From the NCBI RefSeq assembly GCF_016592615.1, contig NZ_AP013043.1, forward strand, positions 1,110,001 to 1,142,000: DNA of 32,000 nt, written 5' to 3'. Shown one piece after another: positions 23,886 to 30,260 of the stretch. Under the pieces are notes generated by a model. It was not told the origin of the DNA. It saw only the letters and a program-made list of their open reading frames with translations, and ran no database searches. A program made the position numbers and the translations under genes. Origin of the DNA: Isorropodon fossajaponicum endosymbiont JTNG4. Its GTDB lineage: Bacteria > Pseudomonadota > Gammaproteobacteria > PS1 > Pseudothioglobaceae. Positions within the stretch are counted from its first letter, which is position 1. Each line of letters opens with the position of its first letter.

Positions 23886-24473
23886 TTAGTGCCATGCAAG
23901 CATGGTTAATAACATTGGAATGGATAAAATAACATTAACGCTTGATGCTAATGCTGCATTTTTTTTTGCCATTGCAATTTCTTCTGCAGTTGCCTCTTTC
24001 ATGCCTAAAATCTTTTGCTGATTTGGCCAAATGATAAACCAAACATTAAATGCCATTATGGTGCCCATCCATGCGCCGATACCGATAACTTGATAACCTT
24101 GTGCAAAGGTAAATGCGCCAATAATACCGTCCATGCCGCGAGATTGTAGTGCTAATAATATCAAACCTAAAATCCAAGTAGTTACTGCTGCCATGCGAAA
24201 CCACAATAAAGCACGAGGCGCAATATATTTGCTAATGGCTGATGGCCCAGGGCCATCAGTGTCAGCCAGCGCTTGACCTACACCTGGCACTTGAACAAAA
24301 TTAAAGTAATAAAGCAAGCCAATCCAAACAATGCCTGCCAATACATGTAGCCACACACTAAAAGCATAATGCTGATTAATAATGACATCCATACCTACCA
24401 AATAAACCACAATCGCAGTAGTAACAAAACCAAGCGCTATTTTACACTGAACCAAATTAATACAATTAAACAT
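23886..24473 (-). CDS. Polytopic membrane protein of the HemJ/CopD/urate-hydroxylase PuuD N-terminal type (family call tentative)
   Basis: ATG at 24473 is preceded by GGAGAG with 5-nt spacing. The track start at 24494 is a TTG. There are about 5 TM helices and a conserved-looking His motif WLHVLAGIVWIGLLYYFNFVQ. Confidence 0.8.
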   Translation of the reverse strand: MFNCINLVQCKIALGFVTTAIVVYLVGMDVIINQHYAFSVWLHVLAGIVWIGLLYYFNFVQVPGVGQALADTDGPGPSAISKYIAPRALLWFRMAAVTTWILGLILLALQSRGMDGIIGAFTFAQGYQVIGIGAWMGTIMAFNVWFIIWPNQQKILGMKEATAEEIAMAKKNAALASSVNVILSIPMLLTMLAWH

Positions 24474-24552
24474 ATTTCTCTCCGTAGTTATCAAAGTTGA
24501 TTATTATAATAAGGTATTTTTCTTGATGTGTGTTAATTTTTAATCTTTTTAT

Positions 24553-25362
24553 ATGCCTGAACTTCCAGAAGTTGAAATCACTAAGCGTGGGCTTGTACCT
24601 TTAATTATCGGTCAAAAAGTGAGTCGAGTAATATTACATCGAGAAAATTTGCGTTGGATTATACCTAAATATTTGATAACAACATTGGCTAATAAAAAAA
24701 TTAATACAATTGAGCGTCGTGGTAAATACTTATTGATTAGGTTTGAGGTGGGTACGTTAATTATTCATTTAGGTATGAGTGGCTCAATTAAGGTGGTTGA
24801 TATTAAAACACCACTACTCAAGCATGAACATTTTGAATTGCAATTTAATAATAGTACAAGTATGCGCTTAAATGACCCAAGACGTTTTGGTGCAGTGCTG
24901 TTTTCAAAAGACGGTTCACACAAACTACTGGATTCGTTAGGAGTTGAGCCTTTGGAGAAATCATTTAATGATGGATATTTATATCAAAAATCACGAAGCA
25001 AACAGCAAAACATCAAAGCTTTTATTATGGATAGCAAAATCGTAGTTGGTGTGGGTAATATCTATGCTTGTGAGAGTTTGTTTATGGCGGGTATTAATCC
25101 GCAACGCAAGTCTGGCAGTATATCTAAAACTCGGTATAACACTTTAACTCGGTGTATTAAAGACATCTTGACTCAAGCCATTAAGGCAGGTGGCACAACC
25201 TTGCAAGATTTTTCTCAAGTTGATGGCAATCCCGGGTATTTCACCCAGACTTTGTCTGTGTATGGTTGTGAAAATAAGACATGCCATCTTTGCAAGGGTA
25301 AAATAGTTAGAATTGCACAAAACCAACGATCCACATTCTATTGTAAAAAATGTCAGACTTAG
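24553..25362 (+). CDS. mutM: Formamidopyrimidine-DNA glycosylase
   Basis: N-terminal MPELPEVE with the catalytic Pro2/Glu3, an H2TH region and a C-terminal zinc finger (CHLCKGK...YCKKCQ). Length 269 aa. Confidence 0.96.
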   Translation: MPELPEVEITKRGLVPLIIGQKVSRVILHRENLRWIIPKYLITTLANKKINTIERRGKYLLIRFEVGTLIIHLGMSGSIKVVDIKTPLLKHEHFELQFNNSTSMRLNDPRRFGAVLFSKDGSHKLLDSLGVEPLEKSFNDGYLYQKSRSKQQNIKAFIMDSKIVVGVGNIYACESLFMAGINPQRKSGSISKTRYNTLTRCIKDILTQAIKAGGTTLQDFSQVDGNPGYFTQTLSVYGCENKTCHLCKGKIVRIAQNQRSTFYCKKCQT

Positions 25363-25757
25363 ATACGCCACAAGAACTGTTTCAAACAAATTGCTCAACC
25401 AACTCTGAACCATTCGCACTGCAAAATTTAGGCAACTATATGACGCCAGAGTTTAGTGAAAATTGCATTGTCATTATTGACCCTGGCATGCAAATTCATA
25501 ATCGTGCTTACGCTGTTGTACGTTTTGATGGTGAGCTATATTTTCGCCAGTATATTGAGCGTGGCTCAAATAAATTTTTAGTCTGCTTAAATACCCAACA
25601 TGATGATATTGAACTTAAAGGTGAGTTTGAAGTGGTGGGTTGTGTGGTTCAACAAAAACAACGCAAGCAAAAACCACGACATTATTACCACCTTAATCCA
25701 TTTACCAAAGAGATGGATTTTTACGTAAGTGGCAAGCTCAAAGATAAGGAGCAATAA
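25350..25757 (+). CDS. Stand-alone S24 (LexA/UmuD-like) domain protein with both catalytic residues substituted
   Basis: It aligns by eye with the UmuD/LexA C-terminal domain. GNYMTPEF matches GDSMxPxh, IVIIDPG...AYAVVRFDGELYFRQY matches LLIVD...IVIAAVDGEFTVKKL, and FEVVGCVVQ matches VFGVVIHV. There is no HTH domain. Its ATG overlaps the mutM 3' end by 13 nt. Confidence 0.72.
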   Translation: MSDLDTPQELFQTNCSTNSEPFALQNLGNYMTPEFSENCIVIIDPGMQIHNRAYAVVRFDGELYFRQYIERGSNKFLVCLNTQHDDIELKGEFEVVGCVVQQKQRKQKPRHYYHLNPFTKEMDFYVSGKLKDKEQ

Positions 25758-25759
25758 CC

Positions 25760-25978
25760 ATGGAAAAGAAAATACATTTAACGTTTAGCATTGTTATGTC
25801 GCTGTTTATGGTTAGTATCATGTTTTTTATGGTGACTTATCTTAATATTGGCTGGACCGACCAAACCATTGACAAGTGGTTATCTGGTTTTGTTATTGCT
25901 TGGGTTGCTGCCTTTCCACTGTTGTATATTTTTTCGCCAATATTTAAAAAAATTATTATTAAGTCGCTATCCAAATAA
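25760..25978 (+). CDS. Small two-TM membrane protein, DUF2798-like
   Basis: A strong AAGGAG lies 7 nt upstream of ATG 25760, which is 2 nt after the previous stop. The two hydrophobic helices, with a WLSGFVIAWVAAFPL pattern, resemble DUF2798 as I remember it. Confidence 0.62.
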   Translation: MEKKIHLTFSIVMSLFMVSIMFFMVTYLNIGWTDQTIDKWLSGFVIAWVAAFPLLYIFSPIFKKIIIKSLSK

Positions 25979-26678
25979 GGTGCGCCATTCTGCCTGAATT
26001 TACACCGTCTCGTCGATAAGAAAAATAATCTTTTTCCTGTTCAACAGTGCATTGGTTGCCACCACTGATTGTCTTAATACCTAAATCATTAAGGGTAATG
26101 CGTGCAGCTTGATAGATGTCCAGATGATATTTTTCGCCTGTTTGGGTGAGTGCTGTACTCAGTTTTTCATCTTTGACAATAAATTGCTCAAATACTTCCT
26201 TGCCCACTTCAAGATTTTTTGATGAAATCGCTACACCAAAATGTATTAATAAATCACGTTCATCAAACTGTGTGATAAACGACTCAATCATGCCATTTAA
26301 AATCCCTTGCCAACCTGCATGAGCAATGCCAATTTGTGTGCCTGATTGATTAGCGGCAAAAATTGGCAAGCAACCTGCTGTCATCACCACGCAAACCACG
26401 CCTTTTTCACGAGTAATAACAGCATCTGCCTCACAATCATCAGACTGAGCGTCTAAGCAAATATTAGAGTGTGTTTGATTCAGCCATTTTGGCGCACTGG
26501 GTAAATCAAAATGCGTCATCAGTAGTTTACGATTATGGATAACAGCACCTGAGATATCGCCTGTGTGCGTTGCAAGATTAAAATTGCCATAATTGCCAAT
26601 ACTCACGCCGCCTTCTAAGTATCGCGGAGTTGAAAGCAACTTAACATTACTTGGAAAGTTTAGCTTAATTTGCATCAA
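25959..26678 (-). CDS. pgeF: YfiH/PgeF laccase-domain (purine nucleoside phosphorylase / polyphenol oxidase family) protein
   Basis: LNQTHSNICL, EADAVIT, VMTAGCLPIF and IAHAGWQGILNG motifs. It has the conserved position downstream of rluD, with a 14-nt overlap. Confidence 0.9.
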   Translation of the reverse strand: MMQIKLNFPSNVKLLSTPRYLEGGVSIGNYGNFNLATHTGDISGAVIHNRKLLMTHFDLPSAPKWLNQTHSNICLDAQSDDCEADAVITREKGVVCVVMTAGCLPIFAANQSGTQIGIAHAGWQGILNGMIESFITQFDERDLLIHFGVAISSKNLEVGKEVFEQFIVKDEKLSTALTQTGEKYHLDIYQAARITLNDLGIKTISGGNQCTVEQEKDYFSYRRDGVNSGRMAHLIWIAT

Positions 26679-27609
26679 ATTTGACCAATACTTGCAATAA
26701 ATCTTGCATATCTTGCGGTAGTGGCGCTTTGAATGACATTAATTCACCAGATGTTGGGTGCGTGAGGGTGAGTTTTTTAGCATGAAGAGTCTGACGATTG
26801 AAATTTTTAAGTGCGTTTTTTAATTGCTCGTCTGCTTTTTTGGGGAAACGAATTTTGCCACCATACATCGGGTCAGCAATCAGTGGATGTCCAATAAATG
26901 ATAGGTGCACTCGAATTTGGTGAGTGCGCCCTGTTTCTAAAATTGCCTTAACGTGGGTGTGGTGTGCAAAACGCTCAATAACGCGATAATGAGTCAGTGC
27001 ATTTTTACCATCTTCGACCACTGCTTGTCTAATTCTGTCTTTAGGGTCACGCCCTATTGGCTCGTCAACCATACCACCAGAAATCATATGACCATAAACA
27101 ATGGCTGAATATTCTCGTGAAATGCTATGGGTTTGTAATTGCTCAGTTAAATACTTTTGTGCATATTCACTACGCGCAACGACCATTAATCCTGAAGTGT
27201 TTTTGTCCAAACGGTGAACAATACCAGCTCGGTCAAGATTAACCAAAGATGGATCATAATGTAGCAATGCATTGGCAAGCGTTCCTGTCCAATTGCTTGC
27301 ACCAGGGTGTGTGACCAAACCTACTGGCTTATTAACAACAATAATCGCCTCATCTTCATACACCACGTCAATGGCAATATCTTCTGCTAACCATGCATTG
27401 GTTTTTTCAATTTTGATTGATAAGGCAACCACCTCACCACCTAAGACTTTCTCCTTGGGTTTGAAAGTTTTATAATGAATTAAGGCATCGCCAGACTTTA
27501 TCCAGTGGGTAATTTTAGCACGCGAATAATTAGGCAACATTCGCGCCATTGCAGCATCAATACGCTGACCAATGAGGCGATTTGGGATAATAATACTTAA
27601 CAAACTCAT
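26665..27609 (-). CDS. rluD: 23S rRNA pseudouridine(1911/1915/1917) synthase RluD
   Basis: S4-like N-terminus, catalytic HRLDKNTSGLMVVARS, and RTHQIRVHL. Length 314 aa. The rluD-pgeF pairing matches E. coli. Confidence 0.95.
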   Translation of the reverse strand: MSLLSIIIPNRLIGQRIDAAMARMLPNYSRAKITHWIKSGDALIHYKTFKPKEKVLGGEVVALSIKIEKTNAWLAEDIAIDVVYEDEAIIVVNKPVGLVTHPGASNWTGTLANALLHYDPSLVNLDRAGIVHRLDKNTSGLMVVARSEYAQKYLTEQLQTHSISREYSAIVYGHMISGGMVDEPIGRDPKDRIRQAVVEDGKNALTHYRVIERFAHHTHVKAILETGRTHQIRVHLSFIGHPLIADPMYGGKIRFPKKADEQLKNALKNFNRQTLHAKKLTLTHPTSGELMSFKAPLPQDMQDLLQVLVKFDAN

Positions 27610-27641
27610 GTTGATTTAGCACTCACGTGGACATAAAATAG

Positions 27642-27716
27642 CGTCGCGTAAGAGATTTGAACTCCTGTTACTAGGATGAAATCCTAGGGTCCTGGGCCAG
27701 ACTAGACGAACGCGAC
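27642..27716 (-). tRNA. tRNA-Glu(UUC), copy B, no encoded CCA
   Basis: Minus-strand sequence GTCGCGTTCGTCTAGTCTGGCCCAGGACCCTAGGATTTCATCCTAGTAACAGGAGTTCAAATCTCTTACGCGACG. The acceptor stem is GTCGCGT/ACGCGAC, the anticodon stem is CTAGG/CCTAG, the loop ATTTCAT gives anticodon TTC, and the discriminator is G. Confidence 0.9.
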
Positions 27717-27772
27717 AAAGGTATTTTAATTGAGAACTTTAAGTAAATAGACTAAATATTTTGTAAGCAGAC

Positions 27773-27813
27773 AAAAAAATGGCTTTGGCTTTTTTCAAAA
27801 ACCACAAAGCCAT
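27773..27813 (-). terminator. Terminator-like hairpin plus T7 run between the two tRNA-Glu genes
   Basis: On the minus strand atggctttg(tgg)...(cc)aaagccat is followed by ttttttt. The plus-strand arms are 27779-27788 and 27802-27813, and the A-run is 27773-27779. Confidence 0.5.
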
Positions 27814-27822
27814 CTATTAATA

Positions 27823-27897
27823 TGGTATCGCCTAGGAGAGTCGAACTCCTCTTACCAGGATGAAAACCTGGGGTCCTAACCGATAGACGAAGGCGAC
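27823..27897 (-). tRNA. tRNA-Glu(UUC), copy A, CCA encoded
   Basis: Minus-strand sequence GTCGCCTTCGTCTATCGGTTAGGACCCCAGGTTTTCATCCTGGTAAGAGGAGTTCGACTCTCCTAGGCGATACCA. The anticodon stem is CCAGG/CCTGG and the loop TTTTCAT gives anticodon TTC. There is a G1-U72 wobble and the discriminator is A. Confidence 0.9.
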
Positions 27898-27917
27898 ATA
27901 ACATTTTCTTTTGCTTA

Positions 27918-27993
27918 TGGTGGAGCTAAGCGGGATCGAACCGCTGACCCCGACACTGCCAGTGTCGTGCTCTCCCAGCTGAGCTATAGCCCC
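27918..27993 (-). tRNA. tRNA-Ala(GGC), CCA encoded
   Basis: Minus-strand sequence GGGGCTATAGCTCAGCTGGGAGAGCACGACACTGGCAGTGTCGGGGTCAGCGGTTCGATCCCGCTTAGCTCCACCA. The G3-U70 alanine identity pair is present and the loop CTGGCAG gives anticodon GGC. Confidence 0.95.
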
Positions 27994-29765: not shown

Positions 29766-30238
29766 ATGAAAATAAACCTGATTGTCATTGGTAAAAAAAT
29801 GCCAGACTGGATACAAACAGGCGTTCATCATTATCAAAAGCAATTACCAGCCTCACTTAACTTTAACTTGATTACTCTTGAGGCGCAAAAACGTAAAGGA
29901 AAAAATAGTGAGCACATTAAAGAATTAGAAGGCGAGTTGCTTATTAAAGCTACAAAAGGTTCTAATTTAATCATCGTATTTGATGAATGTGGCAAGCAAC
30001 ACAGCACTAAATCTATGACTCATTTTTTATCAAATTGGCAAAAAAAATGGCGACCATGTTGCTTTGCTAATTAGTGGTGCTGATGGGTTAAGTGAGTCAG
30101 TCAAAAAATATTGCCCATCAATTATAGGGGTTGTCAAATTTAACATTGCCACACGCATTTGCAAGGCTGCTACTAGCGGTAGAACAAATTTATCGCGCCC
30201 ATTCATTACTTACTAATCGCCCTTATCACAGAAAATAA
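29766..30238 (+). pseudogene. rlmH: rlmH (23S rRNA m3-pseudouridine1915 methyltransferase) disrupted by two +1 frameshifts and one nonsense codon
   Basis: RlmH-like translation runs in frame 0 to the A8 run at 30040-30047. It continues in the +1 frame to the A6 run at 30103-30108, then shifts +1 again. TAG at 30125-30127 replaces a conserved Trp. The conserved C-terminus LTLPH...NRPYHRK ends at the stop at 30236-30238. Confidence 0.85.
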
Positions 30239-30260
30239 TACAACAATCAATCGAGGAATT

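Follow-up and report, generated by a model that had tools for sequence, protein, structure and literature searches.

Does a gene that begins inside mutM, and whose product has the fold of self-cleaving repressors, encode a partner of the MutM glycosylase, or does it encode a protein of another kind? The question is raised by a 135-amino-acid (aa) open reading frame (ORF) in a 32,000-nucleotide (nt) stretch of the Isorropodon fossajaponicum endosymbiont JTNG4 genome (contig NZ_AP013043.1, positions 1,110,001 to 1,142,000; this whole stretch is the window, and coordinates below count from its first letter). A first-pass annotation, made from the letters of the window alone, described the ORF as a catalytically dead UmuD/LexA-like protein that is, together with a small membrane protein, translationally coupled to mutM. 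We favor, with a probability of roughly 60%, a different reading: the ORF is a selectively maintained member of an uncharacterized S24-fold family that lacks a helix-turn-helix (HTH), its product is likely a non-proteolytic binding module and no accessory of MutM, and (included in the same estimate) its linkage to mutM is an operon arrangement inherited in one lineage and not an obligate functional partnership. The 13-nt overlap with mutM, the 135-aa ORF, the AAGGAG, and the 72-aa ORF 2 nt further on were all found where the first-pass annotation had placed them. The features needed for the argument are as follows.

24553-25362, + strand: mutM (fpg), formamidopyrimidine-DNA glycosylase, 269 aa, upstream gene of the pair (ORF and profile matches)
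25350-25362, + strand: 13-nt stop-start overlap of mutM and the S24-like ORF, ATGTCAGACTTAG (sequence)
25350-25757, + strand: S24-fold ORF, 135 aa, without HTH and without catalytic dyad (ORF, Pfam, AlphaFold2 and Foldseek)
25392-25394, + strand: Cys15 codon TGC, family-hallmark Cys 4-5 residues before the EPFAL strand (family alignments)
25437-25439, + strand: Tyr30 codon TAT, at the S24 nucleophile Ser position (phmmer alignment to lambda cI Ser149)
25545-25547, + strand: Arg66 codon CGC, at the general-base Lys position (phmmer alignment to lambda cI Lys192)
25650-25754, + strand: basic C-terminal extension, QQKQRKQKPRHYYHLN, then a predicted beta-hairpin, then a Lys-rich end (sequence, alignment, AlphaFold2)
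25746-25751, + strand: AAGGAG, Shine-Dalgarno sequence for the DUF2798 ORF, within the last S24-like codons (sequence)
25755-25757, + strand: TAA, stop codon of the S24-like ORF (sequence)
25760-25978, + strand: DUF2798 ORF, 72 aa, two predicted transmembrane helices, clade-specific accessory gene (PF11391, hydropathy)

Fold of the 135-aa protein

The protein matched Pfam Peptidase_S24 (PF00717) with 51.8 bits against a gathering cutoff of 23.3, covering profile positions 28-116 only. An AlphaFold2 (AF2) model was built from a 79-sequence alignment (predicted local distance difference test, pLDDT, 80.7) and was matched by Foldseek to the C-terminal domain (CTD) of lambda cI, 1f39 (E 9e-6, template-modeling score 0.80 normalized to the target, root-mean-square deviation 1.5 A), as well as to LexA CTDs and UmuD'. 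By homology and fold, the protein belongs to the Peptidase S24 superfamily. No HTH family was matched in Pfam and no recognizable DNA-binding fold was found, in agreement with the first-pass description of an S24 fold without HTH.

The UmuD-like architecture that had also been proposed held only in part. An HTH-less S24 domain is indeed present; however, the nearest relatives by sequence were the CTDs of CI-type repressors, not UmuD, and the best PHROG match was phrog_4, annotated as 'transcriptional repressor'. Scores fell well below the cutoffs of the NCBIfam models for UmuD (PRK10276, 19.1 bits against 110) and LexA (TIGR00498, 14.4 bits against 110.95).

The AF2 model adds a C-terminal beta-hairpin to the S24 core (strands 110-115 and 122-130, pLDDT 70-80). 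In the basic extension, QQKQRKQ..HYYHLN was unchanged throughout the SUP05 clade of the alignment. The basic tail first noticed in the window proved to be conserved family-wide as R-[RK]-x3-H-[YK]-x-Y on an acidic core, with median charges of +5 for the tail and -7 for the core.

Catalytic positions and cleavage region

Tyr30 aligned with lambda cI Ser149 and Arg66 with Lys192, so the residues reported earlier at the two catalytic positions were correctly assigned. Ser was found at the nucleophile position in 0 of 63 Thioglobaceae loci; Tyr occupied it in SUP05 proper and Met in Pseudothioglobus, with Ile, Thr, Phe, Cys, Val, and Lys scattered among the loci. Outside Thioglobaceae, Ser was mostly kept. 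All 485 family rows have Arg in place of the Lys, which the canonical HTH+S24 relatives keep. Since the residue at the nucleophile position differs among Thioglobaceae loci and outside them is mostly Ser, the Tyr is neither a functional replacement nor a family feature. Of the two substitutions, Lys-to-Arg is the constant family change, and Tyr is not conserved.

We considered whether the true dyad lies elsewhere in the protein and rejected this, as no Ser or Lys was invariant in the 79-sequence alignment. No counterpart of the Ala/Cys-Gly cleavage region was found; ahead of the first core strand there is a stretch of only about 20 unconserved residues. The 135-aa protein leaves Pfam positions 1-27 unmatched, canonical relatives match 1-116, and with only positions 28-116 covered the cleavage-site region is missing. 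Because the cleavage-site arm is absent, the protein resembles UmuD' rather than UmuD. Because the Ser/Lys dyad is absent, no self-cleavage of the LexA/UmuD type, in the known sense, is to be expected; judged by its sequence, the S24-like protein cannot self-cleave in that manner, as had been claimed.

Family members, hallmarks, and origin

A total of 1220 close homologues were found, essentially all in SUP05/Thioglobaceae, and the ratio of nonsynonymous to synonymous substitution rates (dN/dS) for the S24-like gene was 0.008-0.13. These data indicate a real gene and not a chance ORF. The nearest genomes were those of Ca. Ruthturnera and Ca. Ruthia (SUP05/Thioglobaceae clam symbionts), in which the 135-aa protein is 92-97% identical and the ORF is intact and not degraded. 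An exhaustive search of a representative library, together with a profile search, extended the family by over 2000 small proteins (about 100-135 aa) of Gammaproteobacteria, among them members of Acidiferrobacterales (Sulfurifustis) and Thiotrichales as well as others from the sea or from sediments. The family as a whole, which occurs in sulfur-oxidizing Gammaproteobacteria, amounts to more than 2000 clusters in public data. Ca. Thioglobus autotrophicus and Sulfurifustis variabilis are among the named carriers.

A hallmark Cys, an Arg where Lys would stand, and the basic tail delimit the family well. The Cys was present in 396 of 405 unique members and was invariant in two alignments (A1 and A4); AF2 did not place it confidently. 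Further hallmarks are M-x-P-E-F, F-R-Q with its Arg at the Lys position, N81, G97, and Q101. The leader ahead of the Cys is unconserved, 3-26 residues long, with small or polar residues at its end.

The nearest relatives that bear the Lys are repressors of 210-260 aa, composed of HTH_3 or a CI-type HTH plus S24. They share PEF, F[KR]Q (with F-K-Q in the Lys-bearing form), and N81 with the family, which argues for ancestry in a CI-type CTD. The family looks like the CTD of a CI/XRE-type repressor that has dropped its HTH and its cleavage region and has exchanged Lys for Arg; in the Thioglobaceae (SUP05) lineage, the alignments indicate that Ser has been lost in addition. A phage, plasmid, or defense origin was rejected, as plasmids and PADLOC (defense) gave no match to the family and phages gave only weak matches, at about 33% identity, to repressor CTDs. 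Another match, phrog_8558, was uninformative, being a small phage family whose function is unknown. From these searches the family appears to be chromosomal, not mobile.

Searches of the literature on S24/LexA-like/mutM, SUP05/lexA/recA, and Thioglobus/S24 turned up neither a publication nor a curated family that describes these proteins, in line with the first-pass remark that no described system was known. Databases label the homologues 'S24 family peptidase', 'LexA', or 'phage repressor', and not one of these names can apply to the family. IMG/JGI automatically names HTH-less, Lys-less homologues 'SOS-response transcriptional repressor LexA' or 'DNA polymerase V'. Such misannotation carries the risk that an SOS system is falsely inferred in genomes of the SUP05/Thioglobaceae bacteria, which are of ecological importance, and of their clam and mussel symbionts.

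Linkage to mutM and decay of mutM

MutM itself was a clear call, with 339.7 bits to NCBIfam equivalog NF002211 (cutoff 212) and matches to all three of the Pfam domains Fapy_DNA_glyco, H2TH, and zf-FPG_IleRS. The ATG of the S24-like ORF arises from AA-A/TG-T, the Lys-Cys codons at the last zinc-finger Cys of MutM, and no Shine-Dalgarno sequence was found in the sequence upstream of it. When mutM was present in a Thioglobaceae locus, it mostly lay directly upstream, with an overlap of 13 nt or 4 nt (ATGA) or a gap of 1-12 nt, likewise without a Shine-Dalgarno sequence. An exception was locus L040, with 218 nt between mutM and the S24-like gene. A programmed -1 frameshift on the A-run, fusing MutM to the S24 domain, was tried as an explanation of the junction and rejected: the A-run is not conserved (cccatcATG, caaacaATG, ATGA overlaps, and short gaps occur), and the fusion would also cost MutM its last zinc-finger Cys.

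In three relatives, mutM was damaged. Only 19 N-terminal and 30 C-terminal codons are left in a Ruthturnera metagenome-assembled genome (MAG; L001, 3850-4010); frameshifts and a 25-aa deletion are present in a complete Ruthia genome (L004, CP072533, 3268-4010); and a Thiodubiliella MAG has one frameshift (L023, 3205-3318). The S24-like gene was intact in all three despite these lesions, with dN/dS of 0.008-0.07. Compared to the window, the gene of L001 has 1 nonsynonymous and 25 synonymous differences, and that of L004 has a dN/dS of 0.06. That mutM has decayed beside an intact S24-like gene indicates an independent protein family and not an accessory of MutM, and the MutM adaptor role that had been suggested is not upheld where mutM is deleted (L001) or frameshifted (L004). 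In L004, the DUF2798 and yfiH-type genes likewise matched just partly and at lower identity.

The S24-like protein was at least as conserved as MutM in the same genomes (78 vs 68% in L025, 60 vs 58% in L045). The gene is kept under strong purifying selection in genomes of about 1 Mb that are losing mutM and from which recA and mutY are reported lost; such retention suggests an important housekeeping role. In L042 (3360-4634), on a divergent Thioglobaceae-like chromosome, the S24-like gene and DUF2798 stand together behind ccmA/ccmB and an ORF for a 206-aa membrane protein, far from mutM and rluD. The two genes may have moved as a unit.

Gene contexts outside Thioglobaceae

Most family members outside Thioglobaceae do not adjoin mutM. 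Of 92 such loci, about 80 had no mutM within 4 kb, and these fractions are descriptive only, as the metagenome sample was picked with a Ser-containing pattern and is clade-biased. The claimed linkage therefore stood in part: the junction is kept in most Thioglobaceae loci that have mutM, but mutM is lost in relatives and the genes are mostly unlinked outside. In other orders, the family member stands behind a dapF-DUF484-xerC cluster, with xerC as its immediate upstream neighbor in L068 and L069. Two Acidiferrobacterales loci (L064, 4360-5375; L073, 3375-4372) carry this cluster and an unannotated protein of 283-296 aa upstream, and there the family member comes after a TetR_N/COQ9-like gene of 209-214 aa, which it overlaps by 4 nt. 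Elsewhere, the gene lay between a divergent slyD-like FKBP gene (37/92) and a convergent rhodanese gene (28/92), or it was solitary. Guilt by association was rejected as a family-wide guide to function, as these contexts (mutM; the xerC operon with a TetR/COQ9-like gene; slyD-like FKBP and rhodanese; solitary) disagree and offer no common partner.

Proposed role and alternatives

We propose that the S24-like protein would have no role as a self-cleaving, RecA-triggered switch and is most likely a non-proteolytic binding module, to judge from the way LexA, cI, and UmuD' use this fold and from the charge pattern. The acidic beta-core would be a scaffold for dimerization or a peptide groove, as in those proteins, and the conserved basic tail or hairpin may contact a polyanionic partner, either nucleic acid or an acidic protein surface. 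In Thioglobaceae, the gene would be expressed as the second cistron of mutM by termination-reinitiation; the arrangement is seen in the sequence, and co-translation is presumed from it. The family is a clean natural example of a self-cleaving regulatory domain turned non-catalytic.

Several points weigh against this proposal. The stop-start junction with mutM was kept down to 52-58% MutM identity, and some 10 of the 92 loci from outside Thioglobaceae had mutM upstream on the same strand, at 57-150 nt; those that were checked all belonged to the closest sister clade. The mutM lesions of L001 and L023, both of them MAGs, are possibly assembly errors; the genome of L004 is complete. The binding-module role is itself inferred only from fold relatives and charge pattern, and the protein as a whole is acidic (isoelectric point, pI, about 5.5), an uncommon property in DNA-binding proteins. 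Given that most members outside Thioglobaceae still have Ser and that almost all have the Cys, some chemistry at or near the old active site is possible. Finally, a facultative role in MutM-related repair has a small but real chance of being correct.

One alternative is that the protein is a MutM accessory, a pseudo-peptidase that would modulate base-excision repair by binding either MutM itself or the DNA products of its action (AP sites, nicks, trapped Schiff-base complexes), with translational coupling setting the stoichiometry. The overlap or gap of at most 12 nt in most mutM-carrying Thioglobaceae loci would be expected of such a protein. So would the upstream mutM of the closest sister clade, which carries G-E-S-M and has mutM at 57-150 nt or, in L066 and L067, one gene away; and the genes that lie just downstream of xerC would again adjoin a DNA-transaction gene. 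However, the S24-like gene outlives mutM where the latter is deleted, a pseudogene, or frameshifted, has no mutM nearby in L042, and lacks one in the great majority of loci outside Thioglobaceae. Moreover, unrelated genes often overlap in streamlined genomes, and other 4-nt overlaps occur in the window. We therefore regard a MutM accessory as unlikely.

No more probable is a small DNA-binding regulator or nucleoid-associated protein, in which the S24 core dimerizes as it does in LexA and cI and two basic C-terminal hairpins replace the lost HTH as arms that contact DNA, possibly with autoregulation of the mutM operon. Descent from CI-type repressors, the family-wide basic tail, and retention of the gene in symbiont genomes of about 1 Mb would suit such a protein, whereas the low pI, the strongly acidic core, and the lack of a recognizable DNA-binding fold would not. 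A promoter and terminator scan around the mutM operon (24300-26200) gave nothing beyond shuffled expectation, the one promoter-like site inside mutM (25276-25304) being at chance level, although inverted-repeat operators were not searched for. The contexts also differ by clade, with no common regulon evident.

A less probable reading is a RecA-independent DNA-repair factor on a dead LexA-type fold, in which the Cys and conserved groove residues might form a new site acting on MutM products, with the basic tail on DNA. Such a site could, for example, shield AP sites or trapped glycosylase-DNA intermediates, or process them. If true, it would account for the coupling to mutM, the position after xerC elsewhere, and the retention of the gene in genomes of about 1 Mb that are shedding repair genes.

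It is also quite doubtful that the protein is still an enzyme, with a new active site made of the invariant Cys, Glu20/Glu34, and Arg66 (plus Ser outside SUP05), acting as a peptidase in trans or activated by N-terminal processing. The Cys persists behind an unconserved leader of variable length, small or polar residues stand ahead of it, and most members outside Thioglobaceae retain Ser. On the other hand, Ser is gone from all 63 Thioglobaceae loci with constraint undiminished; E34, F35, Q67, and N81 were inherited from canonical repressors and are not newly evolved; the Cys is not confidently placed in the model; and Arg is a poor general base.

The DUF2798 gene

The 72-aa ORF matched DUF2798 (PF11391) with 58.9 bits against a gathering cutoff of 23.5, and the two transmembrane helices described earlier are each supported by a hydrophobic 19-mer, one at about residues 7-29 and the other at about 41-62. 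Its ATG at 25760 is 2 nt past the TAA of the S24-like ORF. Of 63 Thioglobaceae loci, 26 have an intact DUF2798 ORF, and in each of these it follows the S24-like gene immediately, on the same strand and after 2-15 nt. In the other 37, including L001, L002, L004, and all Pseudothioglobus loci, it was absent or decayed (in L003 it is shortened), and in no locus examined outside Thioglobaceae was it present. A conserved triplet of mutM, S24-like gene, and DUF2798 is thus not supported by these counts.

The regular spacing, the strong Shine-Dalgarno sequence, and the joint occurrence of both genes in the different context of L042 could be explained by a functional pair, in which the S24-like protein is tethered to, or regulates, the small membrane protein. 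We give this little credence, as DUF2798 is missing even in the closest relatives and the S24-like sequence is essentially the same without it; the suggested membrane-tethering pair found no support. From its distribution, DUF2798 is a dispensable, SUP05-specific accessory gene.

Relation to RecA

The S24-like gene was intact, with dN/dS of 0.1-0.2, in the Vesicomyosocius loci L008 and L014, which are placed in their clade by genus name only. In clade I vesicomyid symbionts, including Ca. V. okutanii, recA is reported to be mostly deleted (PMC3202245). Taken together, these observations would make the S24-like gene independent of RecA, insofar as that report applies to these loci.

A UmuD'-like manager of a translesion polymerase, or a decoy that binds RecA filaments, is the least probable of the alternatives: the fold resembles UmuD' as well as LexA, cI, and UmuD on RecA filaments, and the UmuD model gave a weak match, but its score is far below cutoff (19 bits against 110), the sequence is closer to CI-type CTDs, no umuC/dinB-type polymerase was present among the Pfam-scanned genes at 17.4-31.9 kb, and the gene is retained in Vesicomyosocius lineages from which recA is reported lost.

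Comparison with known systems

Among the closest known systems are the CTDs of CI/XRE-type repressors, both phage and chromosomal (HTH_3 or Phage_CI_repr plus Peptidase_S24). The lambda cI CTD (1f39/1kca) was the best match by structure and also by sequence, where E was about 1e-3, and the motifs G-x-S-M-x-P-E-F, F-[KR]-Q, and N81 are common to both. The family differs in having no HTH and no linker or cleavage region, in its Arg for Lys and dispensable Ser, in the added hallmark Cys and basic C-terminal tail, and in lying among chromosomal housekeeping genes, not in a prophage.

UmuD', the processed subunit of DNA polymerase V, is about as large as the S24-like protein and likewise consists of an S24 beta-domain with no HTH; it was matched by Foldseek in 1ay9, 1umu, and 8gmt. 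In contrast, UmuD has Ser60/Lys97, a Cys24-Gly25 cleavage site, and a umuC partner, and the S24-like protein has no dyad, no such site, and no umuC nearby. LexA shares the fold of its catalytic domain; however, the S24-like protein lacks the winged-helix DNA-binding domain, the Ala-Gly site, and the Lys, and persists in lineages reported to be without recA. SipA/LepA of Streptococcus pyogenes (S26) is also a clan-SF peptidase fold without catalytic residues, described as a non-enzymatic factor essential for pilus polymerization, and gave a weak structural match (4n31); it belongs to family S26 and a pilus operon, with no sequence relationship past the fold. Non-catalytic clan-SF homologues are therefore already known in principle, and the S24-like family itself is undescribed.

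Surrounding genes

Two convergent genes follow the S24-like gene and DUF2798.

25959-26678, - strand: yfiH-type gene (Pfam Cu-oxidase_4; PF02578, 198.7 bits)
26665-27609, - strand: rluD, next after the yfiH-type gene (PseudoU_synth_2, 117.7 bits)

With a 20-nt overlap into the 3' end of DUF2798, the yfiH-type gene marks the end of the transcription unit. The other neighbors are housekeeping genes (tyrS, coaX, nadD-like, rsfS, rlmH, and tRNAs), and no phage, umuC/dinB, or lexA gene was present among the genes annotated with Pfam at 17.4-31.9 kb, as had been observed before.

Downstream of rluD, a cluster on the minus strand (27641-27993) holds two tRNA-Glu(UUC) and one tRNA-Ala(GGC). On the plus strand, rlmH (29766-30250) is an apparent pseudogene, its frame broken twice (0 to 1 to 2); the first ORF spans only positions 1-96 of the 154-position SPOUT_MTase profile. 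Barring sequencing errors, this breakage fits the reductive evolution of a symbiont-like genome.

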